64,000 nucleotides of DNA, taken from positions 63,065 to 127,064 of the forward strand of contig CAKOTZ010000001.1 of the NCBI GenBank assembly GCA_934120395.1. Direction: 5' to 3'. Both the position numbers and the translations under genes were made by a program. How positions within the stretch are numbered: position 1 is the stretch's first letter; every line of letters begins with the position of its first letter. Positions 6,801-57,368 of this stretch are shown here, piece by piece. The DNA is from an uncultured Clostridia bacterium (GTDB taxonomy: Bacteria; Bacillota; Clostridia; TANB77; CAG-508). The notes under the pieces are model-generated. The model ran no database searches. It saw only the letters and a list, made by a program, of their open reading frames with translations, and was not told where the DNA came from.

Positions 6801-8249
6801 AAAATAAAAAACTTAGATGGAAACAATGAAACTGCAATTGGATATGGATTAGATAAAGCTATTAACAGTTATTCAAGAAACGCTAATAAAAAAATTATGA
6901 TTGCATTAACAGATTCAGAGGAAACTGTACAAAGTATAGAACAAGTAATTAAACAAATTGAAATTGCTACAGATGAAAATAAAATTGAACTTAATACAGT
7001 ACTAACAAAAGAGCATGATGAAATTTTTGGAACTGAATTACAGCCAAGAAGAGGAACCGTATATCAAATTTACAATGTAAATGCTGATAGCATAATTCAA
7101 AATATTTGTCAAAAAATATTTGAAGAAAGCCAACTAGAGAATAATGTAAGTAGTGCAAAAGATGTAGAAGGTGATGAAAATACACCTGGAACAAGAGCTT
7201 ATGGAATTGAAAAATATAAAACAATGGATTTGGAAAAGGGCAAAAGTTTAGATGTAAACTCAATTCAACAGTTAAGCGGAGAAGAAAAGAAACAAGCAAT
7301 CCAAAAATTAGCTCAAGAGACATATATGAATGCAAATAGTAAAATGATAAAGTTTAATGCTAATAATGTAAAGAGTACATTTATACACGAATTAAACATG
7401 GCTTTAATGAAGCGACCTCAAACAAAGTTAACAATAGATACAAAAATTGTAGGAGTAAAAGTTACTTTGCAAGATGGACAAACAATAATCGATACATCAA
7501 AAGGTATAAATAAAAATGTAATGGGAATAGACAAAGAAGGATTGCCAATAAGTGTATATATGGATGAGGAAATTATGCATGGAGCTATTTTACAAGTTCA
7601 ATATGAAACAACTGTAAAAAATCAAGGAGAAATAGACACATTGTCAAACTATATTAGTTCAGATGATAGTAATAAAACTGTTACTACAAGTGCAAAACTA
7701 GTGTTTAACTATACAAGTAAAAATATGCTTTATAAAGAAGAGGATAATAGTACTACATGGACAATTACAAATATAAAATCTATTGATGGAAAAGTTACAG
7801 ATAGTGTTATAAAGCAAGTAAATAAAGAAAATTTACAAATATATCAAACAGGTGAATTTGGTGTGGATTTATACCCTGAAAACAGTATAGAGGTACAAAA
7901 TGGCACAGGAAACTTTGAAGCAAAATTTATTACAACCTTGTCAAAAATAATGACATCAGAAAATAATGATATGGATTTAACTTTTGACACATCAATGGAA
8001 ATTGTAGAAAGACAAAATTCAGCAGGAAGACGTGCAGAGAATGAAATCCCAGGCGACTATGTACCAAATAGTACACCAATTCAATTAGATTCAACTATAA
8101 GCAAAAGAATAATAGTAACCAAACCATTAGGTGAGCAAAGAGCAACATATTATATAATCATTGTAGTAGTATTACTTATATTAGCATTAGGAATTGTAGG
8201 AATAAAAATAATATTAAAAAAGAAAAATAAAATAGAAATATTTAAATAA
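801..8249 (+). CDS. Giant type A cell-surface protein (2482 aa). Carries an N-terminal signal peptide, two vWA/MIDAS motifs, Ig-like repeats, CnaB/SdrD-B-like domains, a DUF11-like C-terminal module, and a C-terminal KPLGE motif followed by a TM helix and a K-rich tail
   Basis: Signal peptide MRINRIITILLLCLILEISPISYA. MIDAS-like IVIDRSGSMSGSG and LVADTSGSMNKNG. Repeats ending H(I/L)(K/R)A(I/V)D(Y/W)AGN. GNVWEDERTGENVQKLS.. is a CnaB-like G-x-VW-x-D signature. C-terminus VTKPLGEQRATYYIIIVVVLLILALGIVGIKIILKKKNK. Confidence 0.8.
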   Translation: MRINRIITILLLCLILEISPISYARENLNNVNVLENKQNTTSSAQLREGATTDENNGDDYDNFSITLDAGYNYGEQKVALEWTGVKDEVKLSDKAKVGDYVNYPISTDTINQNFNTMIKRIRDKSQVSLNNTAWRVIYNDGKTVKIISTATVASTTVSGENYDWSYSNPYAYGDANADNGGYGLYYQLSEIARCFSDKNYVDSIRPFDLKDLPHTQALTELKQYLGRTDAEQLAVELVQDGYDKIKDTDKHGGIFGTGLGGSRNYDTVVGRILDRNNLYIGGNKFFIPNYYNAESSLNSVYYIDGTDVKLHRVNPKGKSMTAGIKVVITLKTDLYQVSGEGTQEQPWEISSNPGNGTYTVYQKAGDGEYEEKLTTKRQSAMFDVSDGIRDLAGPDIPTAELSTIRGDGWNLKLDIKTGDNGTPYMHKIVAKTSEKEHSSNETTTVVATGVAGYSYVVDEKSDTDPGDSIMLKAGESLKIDRTIVNKGRYIHIKAIDYAGNVSEILHFPLMFVFRDLNLFKTYQEASNIDETGIARTAGWNYVNIDWNPIEIEKDDPAELPEVAIVIDRSGSMSGSGMSTVKSGMNVLINKLLDYYPDMKISIISFNGGVSLHIRSSNNRGALISAVNSLGAWGMTNAGAGISVANNILAQSTQKNHVLITMTDGWSNEGEWPNNGIARANARGTKTISLIINYGSTSQFTNSNKLYVVSSGNNSLYNTIAYSLYQEIQDTMIARYYAYRDQEGVNQYELIKGELTEVKYGDGDATDKAGPTKPLVTLSDTADKNNTIKMNVWAEDRGTSYEFYVKFVHPRTKAELLSNPTVQEVKTGIQGYAWTVDDNSTTDPGGNIRDLQFTFGKESIGKWLHIRAVDWAGNLGDVTHIRIETSRFIPWEELNETKELFCVQHGQTIPAREDAEHLNAKVTAGSGEYKLDEVVADPKTGDRIGNRFVEGTTTNIYGTQDIYSYSLGKYIISPNTPIKRPGKEGNATEKEAYVLNYYRQNDSLESFVQKAMYGTEISKGNVTWNWNTTVASERLLAEANAYAKYKEKGYEVSDKKLSSEVYMDDDYKDILVGPFSLDYDPQGFKSGDREVYFASITGMKIYDQDNNVIAELNKDGNNIGNIEAEFVYTGTAIASKRLEPMFTKEKYKFPVADEQFYIKLKYNQNLDNVSKINKIDFIHTEYNVDAQYNVLVGTYNKVKWTPNRITRYDKDVLWCNEVENGHNTCIHNKTYSHIVGCYFYLTATVYNSYREIPSQTLIDVLWAKDYYTTKIQTLTKVSGEDDSNDEWKVKMNVSGNIWEDGMEEQNNGIKENGEFGLDKVRVNLYKVDKNDNRTGDGYYTYSYAVGNYELTEVLRGMYDIEFVYDGQHYKSTKMLVNGNIVDYKSDYTHQKYINNSVTQEVEKERDNFNKAYTEIAGNDTAIGTRGEIGLTYESDINTSKIQTTDNGYVKDQFAMASRTSSYNIFYPISKEIIIQNKRYIKIVDSKDVNFGLAKRYITDISLKTDLYETIFSIKGNIQRYIFSERNIRDINSNIEKDEYIQKVNRADYNWKLDDLLAKAPNDEIKQRLIEILGSANQSELESYLDYMIVIRNSGEKDEAQIAELADYYSKDLEYATKYRDFDITSWAQVKYDTVNEDTNQNKTDKIEIKWTTSSKYGNMDNPYSDKYQKIYTTGLDREELRVRKGEYLEIHIILKTKKNSEGKIELDEDNDGKVNVSEINGYKTYNIVDGKVAGLIDSDSKPGNANPNKPKEYYEDDEDKAPTLLLQLDESNNNGDSMDNVDSKNDIIRDEDGNPIGYGNVVEGNVWEDERTGENVQKLSNNQIISDGIRQENEKLIQDITVELVEYFKHPTDSNKDVYLTLKSQKTRAVLSLSHNNKLEGGYSFINLASGNYQTRYIYGDEEQLQKNVTYNGQDYQAISAQDINEKSETKKSYNDIEIMLVADTSGSMNKNGLDKVKELAEKLAKGLYEKLPEVKIGLTKFNQVAELVSEPKEENSQIIRKIKNLDGNNETAIGYGLDKAINSYSRNANKKIMIALTDSEETVQSIEQVIKQIEIATDENKIELNTVLTKEHDEIFGTELQPRRGTVYQIYNVNADSIIQNICQKIFEESQLENNVSSAKDVEGDENTPGTRAYGIEKYKTMDLEKGKSLDVNSIQQLSGEEKKQAIQKLAQETYMNANSKMIKFNANNVKSTFIHELNMALMKRPQTKLTIDTKIVGVKVTLQDGQTIIDTSKGINKNVMGIDKEGLPISVYMDEEIMHGAILQVQYETTVKNQGEIDTLSNYISSDDSNKTVTTSAKLVFNYTSKNMLYKEEDNSTTWTITNIKSIDGKVTDSVIKQVNKENLQIYQTGEFGVDLYPENSIEVQNGTGNFEAKFITTLSKIMTSENNDMDLTFDTSMEIVERQNSAGRRAENEIPGDYVPNSTPIQLDSTISKRIIVTKPLGEQRATYYIIIVVVLLILALGIVGIKIILKKKNKIEIFK

Positions 8250-30340: not shown

Positions 30341-33300
30341 GAAAGCTAATGAAGTGGCAAATGGAAAAATTGATGTTATGTCAGAAAAAATAGTTGATAT
30401 GGCATTAAGTCCATTATATGATGAAATTGAAAATTTAACAGCAGATATTCCAGCTATAGGCAAAATTGCGAAACAAGTACTTAGCAAATATGGTAAATAT
30501 CAAGAAGCAGACAAAATAGCAAACACACTAAAAGACCAAATAACTAAAAGCAACAGTGAAAGAGTGAAGGATAAATTAAATAAAGACAATAAAGATGCTA
30601 ATGGAAATATTGATAATACTAAACCAAATTTCAATTGGGAGTATGAAACATATTATGCAACTTTAGAAGTACTATCTGTTGAAGCTACAAAACTGACAAA
30701 TGATTTTTTAGATAAAGCTAACCAATACATAGCTGAGAAATTAGGTGGAAAAATAGGAAAAGATTTAGCAGATACCTTAACTTCATATTTTAAAGGTAAT
30801 ATCCAAGCATACATGGATGGAAATATGTTGAAATGGAAAGATACTTTATGGGATTCAACACATAAAACGCTATCTGAAGAAGAATTTAATCAATTATATG
30901 GTGCTGTTGAAAAGGAATTTAAAAATGTAGAAGATGCAATGATAGAAGATGCACAAAAAAAAGTTGATATTATGGTTCAAGAAGCTAAAATTCAAATGAA
31001 TGATAAATTTGCTCAAATAAGGGCAGAAGCTCTAGTAAAAATTACAAATAGTATGTCAGATATGGCTACAGATTTTGCAGGAAGACTATTTAGTCAAGTT
31101 ACTGATAAATCAAATAAACTAGGAAGTAATTTAGGAAAAATTGGAAATGCTTGTGTAACTAACATTACTAATCAAGTTACAAATTGGGCAACAGGTGAAA
31201 TACAAAAATTTGTAGTCAAAACTATGACAGATTTCTTTTTTGGAAGCATGGGGGGACAAAGTTTATTTAATGTTGCAGGGCTAAAATTTGAAGGGCTAAA
31301 AATAGACTGGACTTCTGTTGCTATTGATGTATTAATATCGTGCTTTGAAGATAATGAAACAGTGCAAATTTTAGCAAGTTTAGGAATATTATATTTTTTT
31401 AACACAATTACTTTTCATGATACTGGGTATGACACATATAATAATATGTATTATATGTTTTCAACTTTAGGAAATTGGTTAATACCAACCTTAAAAGGGT
31501 CAGCATCTTATGGAGCACCAAGAATTCAGGGATTGGCTCCAACACAATTTCAAGACTGGTTTGATGCTACTTTAAGAGTAATGCCAGGGATAGGAATACC
31601 AGTTATAAATAGATTGGAAGTACCAATTGTATTTAATGAATTAAGTAACATGGGATTATTTTCAGCTTGGGTCCTTTATCCGGGGCCAATATTGATAGAT
31701 TATTTACCTTACAATGCTATAACAAATACATATAGTAGTTTCATTCCAATTAGTTCAAAAAGAATTGGAGGAGAAAGCACATATTTAAGTGATGCAGCAT
31801 ATATACTATGTGAAATGGATTCAAATTACTGTGCAGATTCGTATGTTCAACGTGCTTTATCACAAACAGGAATATATAGAGGAGCAACTTATGAAGAAGA
31901 TTATATGTCGGAGGCCTTGAATGCGGAAGCTGCAAAGTATTCAAGCTTTAGAGAACAAGCGTCATCTTATAATGGATATGTAAATTCAATACAAGATAAT
32001 ACTGAAACAGCGAAGGTATTATATGACAGATGGAATTCTGCATACATATTTGGCCCGTTTAAAGTAGATTATATACATGATTTTGTGTATACAGATTTAA
32101 GAGGTAAAGTAGATTTTGGATTTATATATGATATGGAGATATATGACCAAGATGGGAATAAAATAGATAAAAACTATTGGAATATAACTTTTTCGGATGA
32201 TACTAAGCTAGATAGATTAACAAATGATGAAGACTATAATTTTCCGTATCCAAATGAAGAATTTTATATTGAATTAATGAATTATGGAGATAATAATATA
32301 CAGAGTATTAGTAAAATAGAAATTAAATATAAAGAAATGCAAGCGCAAGCATCATATCAAGATTTGCTAAGTTGGTATTATATGGGAATGTGGCATGAAT
32401 ATATTAACAAAGTTAAATTTTATACAGGTGCTTCAACCTGGATATGGCATTTTGAACATTATTTTACATATGCAGATATAGCACAAATAAATAAATCAGC
32501 GATTACGGTAGATAACGCTGTAAAATATTATTTACACCACACACAAACAATAACTTTACAAAAAAATCCTAGCCATGGAGGATATGAAACAGAAACATTT
32601 ACAACTACAAGTACAACTGTAACTGATGGAAGAACGGAACTTTCAAATGTAAATGGTGGTAAATTAAATAGTTCATTAAGAGAATCTTTAACAGCTGCTT
32701 ATGCACTGTATAAATATTCACATCCAGATGAGGAAAACGAAGAAGAAAAAGCACAAAAAGAAAAAGAGACAGCTGAGCAGAAACAAAAAATGCAGGATGC
32801 AATAGATGCTAGAGAAAAGCAAATATATGATGAGTATTATGGAAAAATAGAAGAAATAGGAATGAACAATCCAAAAGCAACAGAAAAAGCAAAAAATAAG
32901 CTTTTGTCAGATTTAAGACATCTAGAAAGTCAGAAACTTGCATTGAATAATTTATCACAACTTTATAAAACTAATAATAATAAAACAACTTTAGAGAAAA
33001 GATTAGAATCATTATCACCAACATTAAATACTATAAACAATGCGTTTGCAAGCATGGCAAACTTTAATCCAATGAAAGATGGATTAGAAGTTGTGTTAAA
33101 GAATTTGAATGTTAACAAAGATTTAATGAAGGTATATAACGTATATAATGTTTTGAATTCAAATTACATGACTGATTTGGTTAAAACAATGTATGTTGCA
33201 AATACATTAATAGATTCAAAAGAAGGAAAATATATAATTAATGCTGTAGGAACTATAACAGCTTTTGCAAATCATAATGGTGGAGATATACTTGGAATGT

Positions 33301-36300
33301 TATCAGTTGTTGCTTCATCATTAGGAAAAACTGAATATGCAAATAGTATAAATAATTTAACAAAAATGGTTAGTGGTTTAGATAGTAAAACCATGAAAAT
33401 TGCAACAAAAGTATATTGGGAAGCATTAAATTACAAGGGCGACGATATGGAAAAACATATTAAGGATTTAGTTAATAAGTATGGAGAAGGACTAAATGAA
33501 AAAGAAAAACAAGAGGCAATTAAATCTGCAATTAAAATGGTAAACTATACAGACAATAACTCTGATTTAGGAGACCTAAGCGGTTATGCACAAAAAGCAC
33601 AAAATACTATTGATAAATTAACTGGATATAAAAGAGAAAACAAAGATACAGAGAAGAAAGAGGAAACAAACAGTAAAAAAGAGACAACAAATAGTGAAAA
33701 CGAAAAAACAAATAACCAAAAGAGTGCAATGGAAAATGGACTAGAAGTAATTAAAGGTATTGCTGGAAAAGACAGTGATATAACGAAGACAATAGATAAA
33801 TCAGAGAGTTTCTTCCGTGGTACATCTAATACATCTAAAGATGAATTTTGGTCTACTTTGATTGTAGCGGCACAAGAAATGGCTAACGGAAAATCAAAAG
33901 AAGATGCAATGGAAAAAGCTATTAAAATATCTAAGTCGAATGATCAAGCAAATGTTATAAACAAATATATCGAAGCAACAGATAGTATGACTGCTGACCA
34001 AGTTAAAGAACTAGTAAGTCAATTAAGTAAAAGTTCTAATATGGACGGAATAGAAGCTGTTTTAAATACAGCACTTGAAAGAAATGCTAAAATGTCAGAC
34101 GAAGAAAAGACAGAAGCCGAAACAAGACCTTATGCAGATACATTAGCAGAACTTACTGTTCTTGAAGATGCTACACCATATATTGAATATAGTCCTAAAT
34201 TTTCAATTACTAATATAGATAGACCAAATGAAGTGTATTGGGCAAATGATGATGAATTGGGCATGACAATTGGTGTTGCTGGTGCAGTATGGAAAGATGG
34301 ACATAGTGGATTAGAAACAGACTACGATGGTATTAGAGGAGCTAATGCAAATGGTGACCTAGAATTAGGACTTGAAGGAATAAAAGTAACATTAGTAGAT
34401 AGAATAACAGGACAGACAGGAAAAATGTATAATAGTAGTGGAAGAAAGGTAGATGCTACAACATACACAGACTCAGGTGGATATTATCATATTGAAAGAG
34501 TACCAGTAGGAGAATATGATGTAGTATTTGAATACGATGGACAAACATATAAGGCAACCGATTATTTAGCTGGTGGAGGTATATTAGAATATCTAGATGA
34601 GCCAGACCTAGACACTTATGATAACAATTCAAAAGCAATTGAAAATGCAAGTGAAAGAAGAAGATTTAATGAACGCTTTAATGAAATTGTAAATGGATAT
34701 GCAATAGGAAAAGACGGAACAAAAACTGCACTTGCCTATGACAAATCAGGTGGAGAAAGCAAATTAATTACGCTAGATGATGCAGGACACGTTTTACCAC
34801 AGTTTGCAATGCATGCAAGTACGGCACTACTTGGAATAACATATCCAATTGATGATCAATTCTCATTAGATAATGAAGATACAACAATTATTTTAAATGG
34901 AAATAAATTAACATTCCATAAAGCTGGAGAATATATGTACCATGTTAACCTAGGATTAATTGAAAGGGCTAAGGCAGACTTAGCAGTAACACAAGATGTA
35001 TACACAGTAGATACAACTATAAATCAAAAACAGGAAACATATTATTATGATTTAAGAAATCCAGCAAATATATTTGATGCAAAATTGCAACAAACAAGTG
35101 CATATAGAGATATTTCATATACACGTGAGTTATATAAGGCTGATTATCAATTTAGAATAGATGATTACCAATATAACGAATTAAATCAATTAGACAGAAA
35201 TGAAGACGACAAGAAAGATGAAATAGCAGAAATTCAGAGAATAAAATGGAACAGTGAGGCTTGGGAAGAAAGAGTATTTGTTACTTACAAGCTTACAATT
35301 AAAAATCAATCGTTGCTACAAAAGGCATCTGTTAATGAATTAGTAGATTACTTTGATGGAAATTACAGTTTAGTTCCAGAAGATCTATATATGGATATTC
35401 AAGACGAAGAAGGAAAGCCACAACGTAAATTGGTTGCAAAACAATCATACTACGAATTAAATAGTGGAGAAACTGGAAAGATTACATGGACAGCAAATAG
35501 CAAAACGGGAGGAGCAGAACTTTATCCAGGATTTAATACAATGTATACAACAGGATTAGAAAACATACTATTAAGTTCGCATGACACAATAGATGTATAT
35601 GTAACTTTTGAAGTAGATAAAGGTCAAAATGATGCTCTAGAACTTGGCGAAAAACAAAACGTAATGGAAATTACAAATTATTCAACATTTGAAAGAAGTG
35701 CAACAGACAAAAATGATCCAGAAGGATTAATAGACAAAGACTCAGAGCCAGGAAATAGTAATCCATATTATATGGATGCTTATGAAGATGACAATGATGC
35801 AGCACCAGTTCTAAACTTGAAACTATATGAAAATGATGGCAGAACATTAGATGGATATGTATGGAATGATACACGCAATAAACTATTAAAAACTGGACAA
35901 TTAGTTGGAAACGGTATAATGGATGACGGCGAAGAAAAAATAGACGGAGTTAGAGTGCAATTAGTTGAAAAAATAGATGACCCAGATACTGGAGAGGAAT
36001 ATGAATATGTATGGAAAGAAATTTACACTGGAGAAGATAGATATAGTTTTGTACAACATGGTGGTGCAGTAGCAAATGGAGCAGGACAGGTAAATGACTA
36101 TGGAAGTATAACTACAGATACTACAATGGGTAGTGTAAATGAAGGTCAATATAAATTTAATGAATATATTGCAGGAAACTTTATTGTAAGATTCATTTAT
36201 GGTGATACACCAAAAACATATCTTGCAGAAGGATATGAAAATAGTGAAGGCGAAGGAAAGAACGATGTTTCATATAATGGACAAGATTACAAATCTACAA

Positions 36301-37781
36301 CATATAATATGGGTTATGATGTGAATAATAAGTGGTATGATCTATCTAATTGGTTAAATATTGATAGAAGAATATCAGATGCAAAAGATGATCAAACTAG
36401 AAGATTAAAAGTTATTGAATATGGAAGTAACCTTACAAATAAAAAAGCTGAAATATTATCATCTTTCGACGGTAGAGCAGACAAGAAATATTATGATACA
36501 ACAAAACACCAAGCATTAAGAGACAATACATGGATGTTTGCTGATACTGCAAGATTCAATATTGAAGGCGAATATAACGAAACTTTAATAGATGGTAAAG
36601 AGCAATATGTATATCAAATCAAGAATATTGACTTTGGCTTAGAGCAAAGACCAGAAACTAAAGTTGAGTTAAAGAAAGAAATTACAAGCATTAGATTAAC
36701 CTTGGCAAATGGAGAAACAATAATAGATACAGCAAATGGAGTTGTACAAAATGTAAACTGGGTAGCTTCTAAGAAGAATGCTGTAATAAAACAAAATGTT
36801 TACAAAAGAGAAACAAAGAAATACGAATACACACAAGGTAAAATTCATGTTTACATGGATGAAGAAATTATGCAAGGTGCAAAATTAGAAATAGATTATC
36901 GTATTACAGTTACAAATGATAGTCAAATTGATTATACAGGTAGTGACGGTAGTCTAGGTGATACTTACTATACAGGACAAGAAAGTAGCTCAGATAAAAT
37001 TGCTACCACAAAAATTAATAAGATTATTGATTACGTTGATAACAGCTTAGTATTTAGAAAAGTTGATAATTCAGACTGGTATTTAGTTGAAAATATGCAA
37101 GAGTTTATACCAGACAATATAATTAAAGAACAAGAAGAGCAATTAAAACAAAACGAAGAAATTCAGAAACGTTTACTTGAAAATTACTTGAATGCAAAAC
37201 GAGCTCAATATGGGGCAGATTTTGTTGAAAAGAATTACGATAAGTTGAAGGAAGAATTTGAAAAAGAGCAATCAAGTAAGAAAGATATTGTTGAAGAACA
37301 AACAAGACTAGATAATACAGAAGTTCTAAAATACATGAAGGAAAAAGGATATTTGAATCCAGACTTGAGTATAGTGCAAACTAAATCAGCAAGAACAGAA
37401 AAACAACCAATTACCCAAGTAATTGCAACTAGATCATTAGAGAAGAATGAATTAAAACCAGGACAATCAACAACTGTGGATTTAACATTGGCTAAAACCT
37501 TGTCGCCAAATGATGATGCAGACTCATTATCATACCGTAATATTGCAGAAATTTTGGAAATAAGCAATAGTGCAGGAAGACGAGATATGGATGCTGTACC
37601 CGGAAATCAAGATCCAGACAATGTGCCACAAGAATATGATAGTGATTTTACAGAACAAGTAATTATTACACCACCAACAGGTCAAAATAAAGCTTATTAC
37701 TTTGTACTTGCAACAGTTGTACTAGTAATCTTAACAGTTGGAATTATAGTTATTAAAAAAAGAGTACTAGACAGAAAATAA
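30279..37781 (+). CDS. Giant type A cell-surface protein (2500 aa as called; about 2630 aa once fused to 29882..30340). Has a unique N-terminal region of about 1270 aa, CnaB/SdrD-B domains and a DUF11-like C-terminal module, and ends in PPTGQ followed by a TM helix and basic tail
   Basis: CnaB-like VAGAVWKDGHSGLETDYDGIRG...GIKVTLVD...GGYYHIERVPVGEYDVVFEY and GYVWNDTRNK..DGVRVQLVE. C-terminus VIITPPTGQNKAYYFVLATVVLVILTVGIIVIKKRVLDRK. Paralogous to the 801 and 43237 genes from the middle onward. Confidence 0.75.
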   Translation: MKDGLGKCGQSYAKRYPDIYKKANEVANGKIDVMSEKIVDMALSPLYDEIENLTADIPAIGKIAKQVLSKYGKYQEADKIANTLKDQITKSNSERVKDKLNKDNKDANGNIDNTKPNFNWEYETYYATLEVLSVEATKLTNDFLDKANQYIAEKLGGKIGKDLADTLTSYFKGNIQAYMDGNMLKWKDTLWDSTHKTLSEEEFNQLYGAVEKEFKNVEDAMIEDAQKKVDIMVQEAKIQMNDKFAQIRAEALVKITNSMSDMATDFAGRLFSQVTDKSNKLGSNLGKIGNACVTNITNQVTNWATGEIQKFVVKTMTDFFFGSMGGQSLFNVAGLKFEGLKIDWTSVAIDVLISCFEDNETVQILASLGILYFFNTITFHDTGYDTYNNMYYMFSTLGNWLIPTLKGSASYGAPRIQGLAPTQFQDWFDATLRVMPGIGIPVINRLEVPIVFNELSNMGLFSAWVLYPGPILIDYLPYNAITNTYSSFIPISSKRIGGESTYLSDAAYILCEMDSNYCADSYVQRALSQTGIYRGATYEEDYMSEALNAEAAKYSSFREQASSYNGYVNSIQDNTETAKVLYDRWNSAYIFGPFKVDYIHDFVYTDLRGKVDFGFIYDMEIYDQDGNKIDKNYWNITFSDDTKLDRLTNDEDYNFPYPNEEFYIELMNYGDNNIQSISKIEIKYKEMQAQASYQDLLSWYYMGMWHEYINKVKFYTGASTWIWHFEHYFTYADIAQINKSAITVDNAVKYYLHHTQTITLQKNPSHGGYETETFTTTSTTVTDGRTELSNVNGGKLNSSLRESLTAAYALYKYSHPDEENEEEKAQKEKETAEQKQKMQDAIDAREKQIYDEYYGKIEEIGMNNPKATEKAKNKLLSDLRHLESQKLALNNLSQLYKTNNNKTTLEKRLESLSPTLNTINNAFASMANFNPMKDGLEVVLKNLNVNKDLMKVYNVYNVLNSNYMTDLVKTMYVANTLIDSKEGKYIINAVGTITAFANHNGGDILGMLSVVASSLGKTEYANSINNLTKMVSGLDSKTMKIATKVYWEALNYKGDDMEKHIKDLVNKYGEGLNEKEKQEAIKSAIKMVNYTDNNSDLGDLSGYAQKAQNTIDKLTGYKRENKDTEKKEETNSKKETTNSENEKTNNQKSAMENGLEVIKGIAGKDSDITKTIDKSESFFRGTSNTSKDEFWSTLIVAAQEMANGKSKEDAMEKAIKISKSNDQANVINKYIEATDSMTADQVKELVSQLSKSSNMDGIEAVLNTALERNAKMSDEEKTEAETRPYADTLAELTVLEDATPYIEYSPKFSITNIDRPNEVYWANDDELGMTIGVAGAVWKDGHSGLETDYDGIRGANANGDLELGLEGIKVTLVDRITGQTGKMYNSSGRKVDATTYTDSGGYYHIERVPVGEYDVVFEYDGQTYKATDYLAGGGILEYLDEPDLDTYDNNSKAIENASERRRFNERFNEIVNGYAIGKDGTKTALAYDKSGGESKLITLDDAGHVLPQFAMHASTALLGITYPIDDQFSLDNEDTTIILNGNKLTFHKAGEYMYHVNLGLIERAKADLAVTQDVYTVDTTINQKQETYYYDLRNPANIFDAKLQQTSAYRDISYTRELYKADYQFRIDDYQYNELNQLDRNEDDKKDEIAEIQRIKWNSEAWEERVFVTYKLTIKNQSLLQKASVNELVDYFDGNYSLVPEDLYMDIQDEEGKPQRKLVAKQSYYELNSGETGKITWTANSKTGGAELYPGFNTMYTTGLENILLSSHDTIDVYVTFEVDKGQNDALELGEKQNVMEITNYSTFERSATDKNDPEGLIDKDSEPGNSNPYYMDAYEDDNDAAPVLNLKLYENDGRTLDGYVWNDTRNKLLKTGQLVGNGIMDDGEEKIDGVRVQLVEKIDDPDTGEEYEYVWKEIYTGEDRYSFVQHGGAVANGAGQVNDYGSITTDTTMGSVNEGQYKFNEYIAGNFIVRFIYGDTPKTYLAEGYENSEGEGKNDVSYNGQDYKSTTYNMGYDVNNKWYDLSNWLNIDRRISDAKDDQTRRLKVIEYGSNLTNKKAEILSSFDGRADKKYYDTTKHQALRDNTWMFADTARFNIEGEYNETLIDGKEQYVYQIKNIDFGLEQRPETKVELKKEITSIRLTLANGETIIDTANGVVQNVNWVASKKNAVIKQNVYKRETKKYEYTQGKIHVYMDEEIMQGAKLEIDYRITVTNDSQIDYTGSDGSLGDTYYTGQESSSDKIATTKINKIIDYVDNSLVFRKVDNSDWYLVENMQEFIPDNIIKEQEEQLKQNEEIQKRLLENYLNAKRAQYGADFVEKNYDKLKEEFEKEQSSKKDIVEEQTRLDNTEVLKYMKEKGYLNPDLSIVQTKSARTEKQPITQVIATRSLEKNELKPGQSTTVDLTLAKTLSPNDDADSLSYRNIAEILEISNSAGRRDMDAVPGNQDPDNVPQEYDSDFTEQVIITPPTGQNKAYYFVLATVVLVILTVGIIVIKKRVLDRK

Positions 37782-37902: not shown

Positions 37903-37974
37903 ATATGTTAGGTACGTAGATTGCGTGCTTTAATATGTAAAAACATAAAGAGCTTTTATTTGGGAGGAAAAAAT

Positions 37975-40900
37975 ATGCGAAAAAAGAGGGGAAATGTAAC
38001 TGAACTAAAAGTTATAAAAGTTATGGTAGCCATATTGTTAATTTTAAGTTTAACAAGTGGAAATTTCTTTTTATTAGGAAAAGAAGTAGTAGCTATGGCA
38101 ATTAGTCAAGATTTAGATACACAGACAGCAGATACCATAAATAAAAATGTTAAATTTGATACATTCTTTAAAAACGATAATGGGAATAATACACATTATC
38201 TAGTTTACGATGTAAATGGAAATCTAGAAGATATGTATATGAATTTATCTGTAAAAGATGGATATTTAAAGAATGCAAGCATCGAATTTGCTGATCAAAA
38301 TTACAGTATTCAAAACATTGTGGATGAAGGCCAAATGCTACAAGAGGCAACAAATGAAAAGTTAAGTTTAAAACAGGTAAATACAAATACGGATATTTCT
38401 TTACAAGCTAGAATAGGTTCTATTATTGGAGAAACAATGAAAATAGATGATATCCAAAAAGAGAGCAAAGTAATTTTAAAAGGAACTTATGTTGATAATT
38501 TAGGCAAGGAAAATCCAATTGAAAAAGAAGTTAAAATTTGTGTAGGACTAAAGCAAGATGTTCAAGCAGAATTAACACAAGAACTTGCTTCATATTTTTC
38601 ATTTAAAAATAATGGAGAGGACAAATTTTTAGTACGCATTAGTGCCAAAGTATCCTTAGGTAAGCAAGAAAATAATTTACCAAGAAAAGAAACACAGCTT
38701 ACTATCCAAGTTCCTACTTTAAATGGAATAGCACCAGAAAGTGTAAATGTTTTACCTAAAAATACATCAATGACTAATGGTGAACAAGAAGAAAAAATAG
38801 TTTATTCAAATAGTCAAGTAAACTATGATAAAGATAAAAAAATCGTTACTATGACTGTAGAAAATAAAGAAACTGACCAAAAATTATGGTCTGGAAATGG
38901 ACAAGATGAATACATTATTAGTTATGTATATCCAAAGGGAGCTATAACAGCTGAAACAAATAAATTTGTTTCTAAGGCAGAAGCAAATATAACTATGTAT
39001 CAAGCAGAAAGTGAAAAAGAGGTAAAAGCAAACAATCAAGTAGAAATTACTTTAGATAAGGAAGTTGGAACTCCTCTTACATTAGAAATGACAGCAGAAG
39101 ATTCTATGAACAAAGGTAAAATGTATGCTAATAGTCAAAGAGAACTTAAGGAATATGACACAGAGTATAATACTGAATGGAAAATAGATGTAACTAATAA
39201 AGATATGACGGATGCAATTAGAATTGTTTCAGGTAATAGTTATTTTACAAATCAAGCTGAAAACATTTATTCTTTAAGTATTGGTAGCGACAACTACAGT
39301 AATTATAAAGAAACAAAGGTAAATAAAGAAAACTTTGAAAGAATTTTAGGACAAGATGGATATATTAATATTTTAGATGAAAAAGGAAATACAATTTCTA
39401 GTATTAATAAGAACACAAAACAAGATGAAGAGGGGAATTTAATAGTAAGTTATCCAGATAAAACTGGCAGAATTATTTTAGAAACCTCAAAACCTGTATC
39501 AGAAGGTATTTTGTATGTTAAACATAACAAAAAAATCAATGCGGATTTACCTTATAGTAAAGAGCAATTAAAAAGCTTTATTAAACTAAATGAAACAGTT
39601 CAATTAAACCAAAAACAAGCTAATAATTATAACAACATGGGTGAGACAAAGGCAGAAATTGTTTTAACTGAAACTAATACAAATGCTAATATTGTTTTGA
39701 ATAAAGATATTTTATCTACAATTGTTACTAACGAAAACGTTGAAATGAAAATTGAGTTAGATAATAATAGAAAAGATACAGATCTTTATGTAAATCCAAC
39801 ATTTTTCGTTGAATTACCAGAGTACATCGAAGATATAAATGTAAAAGAGGCAAATGTTTTATTTGATGATAATTTACAAATTCAAGAAGTTAAGAAATTA
39901 ACTCAAGATGGAAAAATAATTTTACAAATCACATTACAAGGTATGCAAGATGGATTTAGCTTAGGAAGCTTTACAAATGGTACAAATATTGTACTTACAA
40001 CTGATATAAAAGCAAAATTATTAACACCAAACAAAAGCGATGAAATAAAGTTATATTATACTAACCCAAATGCAATAAGCTATGCAAATATTGGAACTAT
40101 AGGAGAGCAAAGTTTAGGAGAGGCAAGTACTGATATTCAATTTTCTGCTCCTGCTGGAATGCTTGCTGTAAGTAGTATTACAAATTATGAATCTACTGGA
40201 AAAAATGTAATTTCTGTAAAACAAGGAACAATAACAGATAAAATTTCAATTTTTGATAATGCTAAAACAGCAAAAATGCAGGTAATGATTGTAAATAACA
40301 CAGGTAATTCTTGCAATTCAGTAGTAGCTCTTGGTAGAATTCCTTTCAAAGGAAATAAAAATATTGAATCAGATACTAATTTAGGAACAACATTAGATAC
40401 TGTATTAAAAAGTAAATTAACAGCAGATGGAATTGACGAAGATAAGGTAGAAATTTACTATTCAGAAAAAGAAGAAGCATCTAAGGATTTAAACAATACG
40501 GCGAATGCTTGGACAAAAGAACCAGAAGATCTTTCAAAGATAAAATCGTATTTAATTGTATTGAAGGATTATGAAATGCCAACTGGTCAAACTTTAAAAT
40601 TTAATTATGATTTTGAAATACCAGCAAATCTAGAACATGAAAATAGTTTATATGGAGCTTTTGGAGTTTATTTTACAAATAAAACAAATACAGGAGATAA
40701 AGAAGAAAAGGTGGTTGCTGACATTGTTGGTTTAACAACTGGTCAAGGGCCAAAACTTGCTGTAGATCAAGCTGTTTCAGTTGGAGATGGAAATCCTGTA
40801 CAAGAGGGACAAACCGTTAAAATAACAGTAAAAGTTAGTAATACAGGCTCTAGTGATATTGAAAATGTTTATGTGAAGGATTATATACCTAACTATACAA

Positions 40901-53568: not shown

Positions 53569-53913
53569 ATGACAAAAAGGATTGCAATTGGGTTTATTGC
53601 TGGTTTAGCTAGTGGCTTTTTTGCGTCAGGAGGAGGGCTTTTATTGGTACCAGCGTTTGTGTATTTTTTTTATCTGTCAGACAAAGAGGCAAGAGCTACT
53701 TCTATTTATGCGATTTTGCCAATGGTTATTGTAAGTGGTTTTTTCTATTATACTGGAGTTTGTATTGATTGGAATTTAGCAATACAATGTTCTATAGGAG
53801 GGATAATAGGAGCGTGTTTAGGATCAAAATTATTAAGCAAGATGCCGACTAATTTTTTAAAAATAAGTTTTTTAATTTTTTTAATATATATAGCTATTAG
53901 AATGTTAAAATAA
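53569..53913 (+). CDS. TSUP (TauE/SafE) family 4-TM half-transporter, first half
   Basis: GFIAGLASGFFASGGGLLLVPAFVYFF is a TSUP-like Gly-rich motif. Confidence 0.65.
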   Translation: MTKRIAIGFIAGLASGFFASGGGLLLVPAFVYFFYLSDKEARATSIYAILPMVIVSGFFYYTGVCIDWNLAIQCSIGGIIGACLGSKLLSKMPTNFLKISFLIFLIYIAIRMLK

Positions 53914-53928: not shown

Positions 53929-54315
53929 GTGGAAATAATAACTGGGATAATAGCGGGGATTGTGAGTGGTGCTGGTTTAGGAGGAGGCACTATTCTAATT
54001 TTAATTCTAGTAAATTTTATGCAAATAGATCAACACATAGCACAAGCAACAAACTTAATATTTTTTGTACCTACAGCGTTAATGGCGATATGGATTAATT
54101 ATAAACAAAAATTAATTGATTTCAAATTAGGGACAACTATTGCCGTTGCAGGAATGATAGGAGCTTTGGTTGGAGCAAAAGTGTCATTAATGATAAATTC
54201 ATCTAATTTAAAAAGATATTTTGGAATTTTTTTATTGGTAATTGCTGGGTATGAAATATATAGTTTGATAAAAATGCATAAAAAGAGCAAAAGAAGGGAT
54301 AATACTAAAGATTAG
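53929..54315 (+). CDS. TSUP (TauE/SafE) family 4-TM half-transporter, second half (GTG start)
   Basis: GIIAGIVSGAGLGGGTILILILV. The two stops taa tag separate it from the first half. Confidence 0.65.
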   Translation: MEIITGIIAGIVSGAGLGGGTILILILVNFMQIDQHIAQATNLIFFVPTALMAIWINYKQKLIDFKLGTTIAVAGMIGALVGAKVSLMINSSNLKRYFGIFLLVIAGYEIYSLIKMHKKSKRRDNTKD

Positions 54316-54510: not shown

Positions 54511-54966
54511 CTATTCTTCATTTCTATATTGGTTACAATCTGAATCTGGGTTGCAATTTGAAATTAGTTCTGTTCCAATTCTATAATCGCAACAATCAAG
54601 TTTTGCTCCTTTTAAACATTTTCCTTCATGTTTGCATTTTGAACATATTTTTATATGTTTTACTTCATTAACCCATATATTAATTTCATAAACTTTATGA
54701 GGACAAAGTGGACCAAAAACAAATTCTCCAGCTTCATTTGTAAAAGTATGTGAAACTGGTTTTCTTTCTTCTTTACCGTGTTCACAATCAACTTCAATTA
54801 ATTTGACAACAGCATCTGCAATTGGTTCTTTATAGCAGTCTTTTATAATACCATATATTACGTTACGATTATCTTCTGGCAAGGTAATATCAATGTCAAA
54901 TTGCTTTCCTCTTTCGATAAATCCATCAACATTAATAATTGGACAAATTTTTTTATCTAATTCCAT
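54511..54966 (-). CDS. Hypothetical protein with a prealbumin/carboxypeptidase-regulatory-like beta-sandwich domain and a Cys-rich C-terminus, no signal peptide (possible spore-coat-type protein)
   Basis: AVVKLIEVD...TFTNEAGEFVFGPL...YEINI, then KICSKCKHEGKCLKGAKLDCCDYRIG...NCNPDSDCNQY. Confidence 0.5.
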   Translation of the reverse strand: MELDKKICPIINVDGFIERGKQFDIDITLPEDNRNVIYGIIKDCYKEPIADAVVKLIEVDCEHGKEERKPVSHTFTNEAGEFVFGPLCPHKVYEINIWVNEVKHIKICSKCKHEGKCLKGAKLDCCDYRIGTELISNCNPDSDCNQYRNEE

Positions 54967-55202
54967 TTATATCAATCCTTTTTTTATATTTTAGCAATTT
55001 GAAATAATTGCTTAATATAGTTTATGAATGTAAAAACAAAATGTTACAAAATGGCGAAATGTGTCGATGAAAAGTGCTTTACAGAACATAAAAAACATTG
55101 TACAATAAAATCGTTAAATCAAAAGTTGCAATTTTTAATTTAGTTCAAAAATTTTTAGATTCTATAAAAAAATCTCAATAAACAATTTAATAGGAGGAGT
55201 TT

Positions 55203-55754
55203 ATGCTTTTTAATTATAGCAGAAAAAATATTATACTAATTACGCTCCTAATTAGTTTTATTATATTCTTTGGACTTAATTTTTTAATTCTAAAAATTTC
55301 AGAAAATAAACAAATAGAAAAAGGTGAAGTATATTCTATACAATTTCCAAGCTATGTAGAAGAAAATAAAGAAGAACCAATCAATTGGAGTTTAAAAATA
55401 CCTAAGATAAATTTAGAAGCAAATATACAAGAGAACACAACAGAAGAAGTGCTAAATAGCAATATTGGTCACTTTGTCGAAACTAGTAAGTGGAATGGAA
55501 ATATAGGACTTGCAGCACATAATAGAGGATACGATGTAAATTATTTTCAAAATCTAAAAGATGTGTTAGAAGGTGATGAAATAGAATATTCATATCACGG
55601 AGATACGAGAATATATAAGGTCGAGAAGAAAGTTTATATTGCAAGCAATGATTGGTCATATTTGAACAGAGGGAGGCAAAATAAACTTACACTTATAACT
55701 TGTGTAGAAAATCAACCCAAATATAGATTGTGTGTGCAGGCTATTGAAATTTAA
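55203..55754 (+). CDS. Compact sortase (183 aa, class-D/A-like) with an N-terminal TM anchor
   Basis: His in GLAAHN, catalytic Cys in LTLITC and Arg in YRLCV, the canonical sortase triad order. Confidence 0.85.
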   Translation: MLFNYSRKNIILITLLISFIIFFGLNFLILKISENKQIEKGEVYSIQFPSYVEENKEEPINWSLKIPKINLEANIQENTTEEVLNSNIGHFVETSKWNGNIGLAAHNRGYDVNYFQNLKDVLEGDEIEYSYHGDTRIYKVEKKVYIASNDWSYLNRGRQNKLTLITCVENQPKYRLCVQAIEI

Positions 55755-55768
55755 AGGAGGAAAAAAGA

Positions 55769-57286
55769 ATGAAAACAATAATATCAAGGATTTTAATAAT
55801 ATTTATGATAATTATACTATGTATAGGTGGAGTATATAAATGTAATGCCAATGAAAAAAAAGAAAGTTATAAATTAAATTTAAGAGATGGTGAAGCTATT
55901 TTAAAATATACTAATTATGAGCTAAGAAACAGCTATGTTTATTACGAAATTGAAGAAAATGGAATTAAGAAGGAATACCCGGCATATTGTTTAAATAAAT
56001 TTTTGCCTGGAGTAGAAAAATATAAAGATAAGGATTATATTGTAAGTCCAGACAGACTCGTAAGTGATAGTACAATATGGACAGTAATAACAAATGGTTA
56101 TCCATATAAAAGTATAGAAGAAATGGGTTGTAAAAGTAAAGAGGAAGCTTATACTGCTACTTTACAGTCTATTTATTGTATTTTATACTTACAGGATGAA
56201 AATAATTTTAGTAACTATTCTGCATTGAATGAAAGTGGAGAAAGAGTACTGTCAGCAATGAAAAAAATTGTAGATAAAGCAAGAAATAACACACAATCAA
56301 AAAGTTCTACATGGGTAGATATTATATGTGATGATAATATGTGGAAAGCAGATAGTGTTGATGATAACTATGCATACAAAGAGTATCATATAGGAAATAC
56401 AATTATTAAAGACGAGTATATTGTTCAATTAGGAAGTGGATATCCAAATGGAACATTGATTACTGATTTAGATAATAATGTTAAAAGCACATTTAAGAAA
56501 GGTGAACATTTTAAAGTTATTGTACCTGCAAATGAAATGAAAAAAACAGGTAGTTTCTATGTTAAGGTAGATGCTAAACTAAGAACATTGCCAGTATATG
56601 ATGCTTCTACAGGTAATCAAAATCAACAGAATTATGCACTTACTCATGAATTATATGAAGATGGACATGGAGAAGTGTTAGAAAAATATAAAAGTGATGC
56701 AAGCCAAATTACAATAATCAAAAGGGATAATGAAACGAAGAAAAGGCTGGAAGGAGCAGAATTTAATATATTAGATAACAATAAAAAAGTGATACATGCA
56801 GGATTAATAACTAATAGTAATGGTGAAACAAAAGTTAAAAATTTAGAAGCGGGTTTTTATTATATAGAAGAAACAAAAGCACCAAGTGGATATCATAAAA
56901 TAAAAGAACCAATTCGTTTTGAATTAAAATATAATCAAGAACTAACTATTAGTGTAAATAATACAGTTGAAAAACATACAGAGGAGTCAACAACTACAAC
57001 AGGTAATATTACCATTACTGATAAATATGAAGAAAATATAAAAAATTCAGAACATTATGAAGAAATAATTGAAAACAATGAAAAAAATAATATAAATAAT
57101 CAATTAACACATGTAAAAAAAGAATATAATACAATTACAAATAACACCAATAATACACAAAATGAAGACAGCATAGAAGTTAATAATAAAAATATTAGCA
57201 ATAGAATTGAAAGTAAGCAAAAAAACATGGAAACCATAAATGTTAGCACAAAAAATATAAAAGAACTACCTAAAACAGGAATGTAA
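55769..57286 (+). CDS. Secreted CnaB/pilin-fold surface protein ending in LPKTG-M-stop, i.e. a sortase motif with no hydrophobic/basic tail
   Basis: Signal peptide MKTIISRILIIFMIIILCIGGVYKCNA. CnaB-type domain ITIIKRDNETKKRLEGAEFNIL...NGETKVKNLEAGFYYIEETKAPSGY. C-terminus ...NIKELPKTGM*. Confidence 0.75.
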   Translation: MKTIISRILIIFMIIILCIGGVYKCNANEKKESYKLNLRDGEAILKYTNYELRNSYVYYEIEENGIKKEYPAYCLNKFLPGVEKYKDKDYIVSPDRLVSDSTIWTVITNGYPYKSIEEMGCKSKEEAYTATLQSIYCILYLQDENNFSNYSALNESGERVLSAMKKIVDKARNNTQSKSSTWVDIICDDNMWKADSVDDNYAYKEYHIGNTIIKDEYIVQLGSGYPNGTLITDLDNNVKSTFKKGEHFKVIVPANEMKKTGSFYVKVDAKLRTLPVYDASTGNQNQQNYALTHELYEDGHGEVLEKYKSDASQITIIKRDNETKKRLEGAEFNILDNNKKVIHAGLITNSNGETKVKNLEAGFYYIEETKAPSGYHKIKEPIRFELKYNQELTISVNNTVEKHTEESTTTTGNITITDKYEENIKNSEHYEEIIENNEKNNINNQLTHVKKEYNTITNNTNNTQNEDSIEVNNKNISNRIESKQKNMETINVSTKNIKELPKTGM

Positions 57287-57368
57287 AATATAAGAGGCTA
57301 ATTGATAATTGACAGATAAATGCATAAAATATATAATAATGTTTATTAAACAGTAACGAAAGGAAAAA

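Follow-up and report, generated by a model that had tools for sequence, protein, structure and literature searches.

The sorting signal of a classical sortase substrate is tripartite, made up of a recognition motif, a hydrophobic helix and a basic tail; textbooks define sortase substrates by it and, to our knowledge, every substrate-prediction tool has it built in. The class D sortase substrates that we know of, which are of the LPNTA or LPQTGS types, carry full transmembrane (TM) tails. Among the thioester-domain (TIE) adhesins, that of pLS20 has no sorting signal and is sortase-independent (PMC8092201). Here we describe a pair of genes, one encoding a sortase and the other a class II TIE adhesin that ends a single residue after LPKTG, in a 64-kb stretch of DNA (29% G+C) from an uncultured Clostridia bacterium (GenBank assembly GCA_934120395.1, contig CAKOTZ010000001.1). 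We refer to this whole stretch as the window; coordinates are those of the window unless another locus is named, and the window protein or window locus is the one at 55203..57286 on the plus strand.

From a comparison of sequences, we conclude that the ending of the adhesin probably does not reflect a broken gene but represents a minimal sorting signal that has not been described. We consider it reasonably probable that (K/R)LPxTG-X-COOH is a functional signal processed by a dedicated sortase clade, the two genes forming a self-contained cassette. On our best reading, it is by design, and not through some accident, that the signal has neither the hydrophobic helix nor the basic tail of its classical counterpart. 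The anatomy of the two proteins, the conservation of the tail and the association of the sortase with it are directly supported.

The gene pair and its one-residue tail

The pair consists of a sortase open reading frame (ORF), a 14-nt gap and an adhesin ORF, with the following features.

55078..55106, plus strand: promoter-like site TTTACA-17-TACAAT (10/12) upstream of the sortase gene, a candidate operon promoter on weak evidence, such sites being only modestly enriched over shuffled sequence in this AT-rich region
55192-55197, plus strand: AGGAGG, ribosome-binding site of the sortase gene, read from the sequence
55203..55754, plus strand: sortase, 183 aa (PF04203), whose N-terminal membrane helix (about aa 7-39) is joined through a disordered linker (aa 39-56) to a catalytic beta-barrel (aa 62-183)
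55518-55520, 55701-55703 and 55725-55727, plus strand: predicted sortase catalytic residues H106 (in LAAHNRG), C167 (in TLITC) and R175
55755..55760, plus strand: AGGAGG, ribosome-binding site of the adhesin gene, read from the sequence
55769..57286, plus strand: class II TIE adhesin, 505 aa, with a thioester domain (TED), one CnaB domain, a disordered stalk and an LPKTGM-stop ending
55769..55849, plus strand: predicted cleavable Sec signal peptide (aa 1-27), with a putative cleavage site between ...VYKCNA and NE
55856..56698, plus strand: TED with class II beta-sandwich insert (about aa 30-310), from PF08341, alignment and Foldseek
55988-55990 and 56627-56629, plus strand: putative thioester-pair residues C74 (in YCLN) and Q287 (in QNYAL), invariant in a 33-sequence alignment
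56705..56965, plus strand: SpaA/CnaB domain (PF17802; aa 313-399), with invariant K318, E368 (E-box YYIEETKAPSGY) and N398
56966..57262, plus strand: N/T/E/K-rich disordered stalk (aa 400-498; predicted local distance difference test, pLDDT, <50), from alignment and the AlphaFold2 (AF2) model
57266..57286, plus strand: putative minimal sorting signal L500-P-K-T-G-M505 plus TAA, the ORF ending K498-E-L-P-K-T-G-M505
57309..57337, plus strand: sigma-70 consensus TTGACA-17-TATAAT (12/12), in the spacer after the LPKTGM stop

The adhesin has the LPXTG pentapeptide of a canonical signal near its C-terminus. LPKTG is followed only by M505 and the stop, so that the hydrophobic segment of about 15-20 residues is absent; there is no positively charged tail either, the basic residues instead preceding the motif. 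When the whole adhesin was scanned against NCBIfam at E up to 0.01, there was no match to the LPXTG anchor model TIGR01167. Translation of the 150 nt 3' of the stop revealed no TM or hydrophobic stretch in any of the three frames, each of which contains several stops. A first-pass annotation of this DNA, made from the sequence alone, had described a KELPKTGM ending with no hydrophobic segment or basic tail in any downstream frame, and both the ORF and the three-frame translation bear this out.

The ending is not peculiar to the window. A search of a 5.8-billion-protein collection returned 371 homologues of the adhesin, and nearly all of the best 120, whose C-termini were read (33-100% identity), end in LP[KVIR]TG plus exactly one residue. 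When these were pooled with proteins from the genome loci described below, giving 186 non-redundant homologues (33-100% identity), the pattern [LI]Px[TSA]G, exactly one residue and a stop was found in 183. The last residue of the 183 is most often M (135), followed by Y (17), K (14), F (10), C (5), and I and L (one each). The variable position of the motif is occupied by Val (91) or Lys (76), and the residue before the motif Leu is K or R in 162 of the 183. The 33-sequence alignment shows no variation at L500, P501, T503 or G504, despite a stalk that ranges among homologues from a few residues to more than 200. The stop codon is TAA at some loci and TAG at others, with further in-frame stops following. 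The window sortase itself was found on eight independent metagenome contigs. Four places were retrieved, and at every one of them the sortase is followed by the identical ORF of 505 aa. The strict conservation of LPxTG beside a dedicated sortase argues that the motif is in use.

We found no description of LPxTG-plus-one signals in the full-text literature searched; a megaplasmid preprint (PMC12934698) describes canonical signals only. Membrane-retaining C-termini coexist with the short tail in the window genome, and canonical LPKTG+TM+KTRKIK and IPQTG+TM proteins occur in related genomes. C-termini with motif, TM and basic residues are thus available in both; the short tail is, to judge by these proteins, specific to this adhesin type. 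In one retrieved locus (L083), a 490-aa protein with VWA and GBS104-like tip-pilin Ig (immunoglobulin) features and a canonical LPKTG+TM+KTRKIK ending is encoded on the minus strand (1957-3429), upstream of, and divergent from, a frameshifted-looking sortase and a fragment of a TED gene, which indicates that canonical and short signals coexist in the lineage.

The fold of the adhesin is that of a TIE protein. It matches PF08341 with 32.5 bits (gathering cutoff 22), and its AF2 model (pLDDT 79; residues 404-505 disordered) is closest by Foldseek to full-length B. anthracis BaTIE (6fwv; E 5e-25, 374 columns), followed by the TED of EfmTIE86 (6fwy; E 2e-15), both of class II. The CnaB domain of what the first-pass annotation had called a CnaB/pilin-fold protein is indeed present; the N-terminal class II TED had been missed. 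According to the class II motif definitions for Cys ([YFL]C-hydrophobic-hydrophilic) and Gln (hydrophobic-Q-hydrophilic) (PMC6194298), C74 and Q287 would form the thioester, and the two motifs are kept in 118 of 120 and 119 of 120 adhesin homologues. A TQxx-like motif is also present at aa 131-136, and Q133 (in TATLQS, resembling TQXA) was considered as the thioester Gln and dropped in favor of Q287 under the same definitions. In the CnaB domain, K318, E368 and N398 fit a putative isopeptide triad. There is an additional invariant lysine outside this triad, K249, which lies in a beta-strand beside invariant E246 and D195. The pilin motif YPK[NDGS] is found in one of 120 adhesin homologues, the window protein reading GYPNG; with neither this motif nor a sortase lid (see below), identity of the adhesin as a pilin was rejected.

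The N-terminus offers no obvious substitute for the missing membrane segment. Homologues have ordinary AXA-type signal peptide sites (for example NSVQA and VNA) and inspection of the window adhesin revealed no good lipobox, so that retention via an uncleaved signal anchor or a lipobox is not supported.

The sortase stop is separated from the adhesin ATG by 14 nt that contain the ribosome-binding site of the adhesin gene, which implies co-transcription; in most related loci the corresponding gap is about -60 to +60 nt. On the other side, the adhesin stop (TAA, 57284-57286) is separated by 82 nt from the ATG (57369) of a gene for a CNNM/CBS/CorC transporter, or by 88 nt from the ATG (57375) chosen by other gene callers, in agreement with the spacer of about 80 nt noted at first pass. 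No intrinsic terminator 3' of the adhesin gene was detected in this spacer, and the sigma-70 site within it is likely the promoter of the CNNM gene, marking the 3' boundary of the cassette.

A sortase clade associated with the short tail

The sortase matches PF04203 with 76.4 bits (gathering cutoff 26.6; E 2e-21) and lies above the cutoff of TIGR01076 (52.2 against 39.35). Its AF2 model shows an N-terminal helix (7-39), a disordered linker and an eight-stranded sortase beta-barrel that Foldseek aligns with solved sortases at TM-scores of 0.6-0.7 and root-mean-square deviations of 1.5-2.2 Å. H106, C167 and R175 are unchanged across a 47-sequence sortase alignment, and HNRG and T[LM]ITC are present in 120 of 120 family members. 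Given this invariant triad, the pLDDT of 87 for the model and a fold matching SrtC1 and SrtD (E ~5e-12), the sortase looks active, and the earlier view of it as intact holds.

Its relationship to the recognized sortase classes is more distant. Foldseek ranks class C SrtC1 (3rbj; E 5e-12, 29% identity) and class D SrtD (4d70; E 7e-12, 31% identity) about equally, and the top PDB sequence match is C. perfringens SrtD (E 3e-11, ~30% identity). In NCBIfam, the best partial match is to class C (NF033745; 56.5 against a cutoff of 160), with class D (NF033746, 43.7 against 165; NF058671 for SrtD, 48.5 against 140) and class E (42 against 160) behind it, and the enzyme is below the curated cutoff for every class matched (C, D, E and GN). 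No NCBIfam model is specific to this sortase or to this adhesin, and the PGAP label on one family member is 'class D sortase'. The class C lid motif DP[WFY] occurs in none of the 120 family members, and none of them has room for a C-terminal TM, the median number of residues after TLITC being 18. What the clade does share is a set of signatures, GHF.ETS, GN(I/V)GLAAHNRGY..NYF and T(L/M)ITCVEN.P.YR.CVQA. Gene callers clipped the N-termini of some members, for which in-frame sequence further upstream still encodes the membrane helix.

When one genome per species was scanned using the sortase alignment alone as query, at least ~590 stretches with a relative were found, of which 80 loci were retrieved; the names of their samples point to the gut of humans, rabbits, mice and goats. 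In 69 of the 80, a TED adhesin homologue lies directly downstream of the sortase. The tails of these 69 are LPxTG plus one residue in 64 cases and LPKSGM in two, the remainder being visibly fragmented, so that at least 66 have the one-residue form and none has a canonical tail. Approached from the adhesin side, three distant homologues (39-42% identity) in three different chromosomal neighborhoods each have a small sortase immediately upstream.

At retrieved loci with no adjacent TED gene, other genes follow the sortase: at some, a SipW-type signal peptidase and two or three TasA-like small secreted proteins with KYITxxxG N-termini, and at others a GerS-like germination lipoprotein and a MazF-like gene. 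Named examples of non-TED loci are L012, L046, L083 and L087 (~4400-7800), and L015, L021, L035, L068 and L088 (~4540-5700).

The second context in which the tail was encountered is that of giant adhesins. When 1.84 billion cluster representatives were searched exhaustively with a profile, most of what was returned were giant multi-SpaA proteins of 1-6 kaa, and no clean sister-group phylogeny emerged. Of the 143 new best matches (cluster representatives), 55 end in LPxTG plus one residue, and a pattern scan of the same 143 counted 59 with a canonical motif, TM and basic tail. The short-tail giants (2-3.7 kaa, with many SpaA repeats) typically end LP[KRT]TG[YFW]-stop after a conserved Trp-rich C-terminal domain. 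One of them, a 2320-aa protein ending ...LPKTGW, has a 315-aa sortase close upstream, and its locus (L093) is part of a conjugative element that also encodes ParA/ParB, RepA_N, a VirD4-type coupling protein, TrbL and Maff2. A second (3575 aa, ...LPKTGY) has a 324-aa sortase ~1.6 kb downstream. The catalytic domains of these 315- and 324-aa sortases are 48% and 43% identical to that of the window enzyme, and both share GH..TS.W.GN and HNRG, the one on the conjugative element also having TLITCVE and RLCVQA. In the regions 2993-5162 of L093 and 14089-16205 of L096, next to short-tail giants, the clade sortases are 315-324 aa long and have long low-complexity linkers. No sortase was found within 8 kb of the canonical-tail giants P0262 and P0247. 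Judged by sequence, the sortase clade and a one-residue tail are therefore associated in two settings that are unrelated to each other. A tblastn search of PLSDB plasmids using the window sortase and that of the conjugative element gave no match.

We also note a conserved protein in front of each of the L093 and L096 sortases. It is 334-410 aa long, has a signal peptide and a C-terminal TM, matches nothing in Pfam, and could be an acceptor or a partner.

How the signal may be used

In the mechanism that we favor, the adhesin would be exported by Sec and the membrane-anchored sortase would then bind its free C-terminal LPKTGM. The enzyme would cut between T503 and G504, releasing the dipeptide Gly-Met, and would transfer the adhesin via Thr503 to an amine acceptor, most likely a peptidoglycan precursor; the stalk would then span the wall and display the thioester head for covalent binding to a target. 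Cleavage by the sortase, the acceptor, and the capture of a substrate that has no membrane anchor are all elements that we infer. No extension shorter than a single residue would leave the scissile-site Gly with a peptide bond on its C-terminal side, which would explain why exactly one is kept. As far as is known, sortases use LPXTG poorly when its Gly bears a free carboxylate and accept one further residue, properties that fit selection for exactly one residue, and the clade may recognize the free C-terminus of the residue after Gly. That such a reaction is feasible is suggested by the incorporation of anchor-less exogenous LPETG peptides into the wall by S. aureus SrtA (PMC3929722).

A broader proposition, to which we give an even chance, is that LPxTG-X-COOH constitutes a distinct and previously unrecognized class of sortase signal without membrane retention. 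It would be served by its own HNRG clade (most members also having T(L/M)ITCVE), spread across hundreds of species of uncultured gut Clostridia, and be found also on giant adhesins of conjugative elements.

Several observations weigh against these proposals. In B. anthracis, GamR-BasO, which has LPHTG and no hydrophobic tail, appeared in the supernatant only and was not anchored (PMC3208642); this result makes a conserved TM-less signal unexpected and suggests that the clade would need a special form of substrate capture. Keeping a soluble exported adhesin near the membrane for long enough to be captured is a difficulty for the proposals, and wall anchoring itself is a default assumption only. 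The signal peptides of the giant-linked sortases appear to be cleavable and not signal anchors, a hint that members of the clade may work elsewhere than at the membrane. A third short-tail giant, P0248, has no sortase in the 7 kb upstream, its contig ending ~100 nt after the gene. Pairing of sortase and adhesin is not absolute, since 11 of the 80 sortase loci have no adjacent TED gene. Finally, the carriers found are all uncultured metagenome-assembled genomes (MAGs); those of the 80 loci are nearly all titled Clostridia or Clostridium, with one Candidatus Scatovivens and two Bacillota.

Some of the same features lend themselves to a different use of the LPxTG-X end, such as the joining of pilus-like subunits, attachment to a specific protein acceptor, or a reaction with adhesin already free outside the cell. 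We regard such a non-anchoring role as unlikely, while noting that it fares best among the alternatives. The model is as close by Foldseek to the pilus-polymerizing class C enzyme (3rbj, E 5e-12) as to class D (4d70), the best partial NCBIfam match is also class C, and a substrate without membrane retention suits reactions with soluble partners. The 334-410-aa neighbor at L093 and L096 is a possible acceptor, the sortases at these loci have cleavable-looking signal peptides, and the invariant lysine K249 outside the CnaB triad might be read in the same light. However, a YPK pilin motif is present in only one of 120 adhesins, the sortases have neither a lid (0/120) nor a C-terminal TM, and in the window and at most other loci the sortase is accompanied by just one substrate gene, with no conserved third member of the cassette. 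K249 may be structural, given its position in a beta-strand next to E246 and D195.

Plain secretion and release, with LPxTG-X kept for a reason unconnected to sortases or with the sortase doing nothing more than trimming it by hydrolysis, seems to us distinctly improbable. It would accord with the finding that classical sortases leave substrates that lack a hydrophobic tail unanchored (PMC3208642), and the first-pass annotation had argued along this line in expecting the adhesin to be released and in naming an unusual secreted protein among its explanations. Set against this, the motif is the exact sortase pentapeptide, invariant and always at the extreme C-terminus, and it is coupled to the sortase in two unrelated genomic contexts; a motif with a non-sortase function would not be expected to track the clade.

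A recent 3' deletion leaving a decaying pseudo-substrate, as the first-pass annotation had suggested, is very improbable indeed. The idea takes its appeal from canonical TIE proteins such as BaTIE, in which LPXTG is followed by a TM (PMC6194298), yet 183 of 186 homologues, with identities as low as 33%, keep both the motif and the position of the stop, and on this basis we reject it. The stops differ (TAA, TAG) and linker lengths vary among proteins with this ending, the same tail is seen in the giants, and the residues that would form the thioester and isopeptide bonds are intact and do not vary. Orthologues, which had been proposed as a place to look for a full LPKTG-TM-RK tail, gave no canonical tail among the 69 sortase-linked adhesins, and the longer ORF that resequencing might have uncovered did not materialize in the independent contigs, all four places retrieved reading identically. 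An assembly or annotation artefact, or read-through or recoding of the stop into a downstream TM, can scarcely be credited, since no downstream frame is hydrophobic, stops in all three frames and the use of both TAA and TAG in relatives rule out read-through, frameshift and recoding, the other window genes translate normally with table 11, and independent contigs agree.

If processing of the minimal signal by a dedicated sortase is confirmed, not every sortase reaction would require membrane retention. Surface adhesins of uncultured gut Clostridia and of their conjugative elements would be invisible to substrate predictors, and the sortase-dependent surface proteome would be underestimated. 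That the carriers found are all uncultured MAGs, and that predictors require a TM segment, would together explain how the system went unnoticed. The dedicated sortase may also serve as a ready-made protein-ligation enzyme with a very short natural tag. The comparative evidence for the system is strong; its mechanism is a proposal.

Surroundings of the cassette and comparison with known systems

The 64-kb window contains no sortase gene other than that at 55203..55754. It encodes five giant predicted surface proteins (1540-2500 aa; VWA, DUF11, SdrD_B), all on the plus strand, at 801-8249, 24504-29870, 30279-37781, 37921-43218 and 43225-47847. At the end of each, a short non-LPXTG motif (TPPTGE/Q, TKPLGE, VRTGG, IKTGS) is followed by a hydrophobic helix of ~20 aa and then by a K/R tail, as in ...ITPPTGENRATYYLLIGAAVLIVLAGGIYIIKRKVIKK; these proteins may be substrates of another sortase-like system or may simply be TM-anchored. 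Upstream of the cassette, a TauE/SafE-type permease (PF01925) is split between two plus-strand ORFs (53569-53913 and 53929-54315; 114 and 128 aa). The same split recurs in the four independent contigs retrieved, so the division into two genes is probably natural and does not reflect a frameshift. Between the permease and the sortase, and divergent from the latter, lies a minus-strand gene (54511-54966) for a 151-aa protein with no signal peptide, a weak CarboxypepD_reg-like beta-sandwich match and a Cys-rich C-terminal third; in other contigs this protein has no Pfam entry on record.

To place the cassette among described systems, we compared it with five of them. The first is S. aureus protein A and SrtA, with which it shares a Sec signal, an LPXTG motif after a disordered stalk, and a His-Cys-Arg transpeptidase with an N-terminal membrane anchor. 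It differs in having no hydrophobic helix or basic tail and only one residue after Gly, and in its sortase, which is dedicated and operon-linked and not a housekeeping enzyme. The resemblance to the class D sortases (C. perfringens SrtD, 4d70; B. anthracis SrtC, 2kw8) lies in the small size, the N-terminal anchor, and the absence of both a lid and a C-terminal TM. However, identity is only ~30%, scores are below the class D and SrtD cutoffs, and the window enzyme has its own HNRG and TLITCVE signatures.

Sortase-assembled pilus loci also have a sortase gene beside that of a CnaB-fold substrate, and the similarity of our enzyme to SrtC1 equals its similarity to SrtD. In contrast to such loci, the cassette has no lid, no YPK motif, a single substrate gene and no pilin-type TM tail. 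As for the reaction itself, the substrates used for in vitro sortagging (LPETGG, or LPETG with at least one further residue) and exogenous LPETG peptides are similarly minimal, TM-less LPXTG-X sequences that sortases accept; those are artificial, whereas the signal described here is natural, conserved and encoded in genomes.

The adhesin itself resembles the class II TIE proteins (BaTIE, 6fwv; EfmTIE86, 6fwy; SaTIE; and the TIE protein of pLS20), with which it has in common the fold, the order of TED followed by CnaB, and the YCLN, Q(D/N)YAL and E-box motifs. Relatives are found on conjugative elements, as are pLS20 TIE and enterococcal examples. BaTIE, SaTIE and EfmTIE86 carry LPXTG with a TM and are anchored by general sortases, whereas the window adhesin has the motif without the TM and a sortase of its own. 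With a motif and no TM, its family is therefore intermediate between the TIE proteins with a full signal and the signal-less TIE protein of pLS20.

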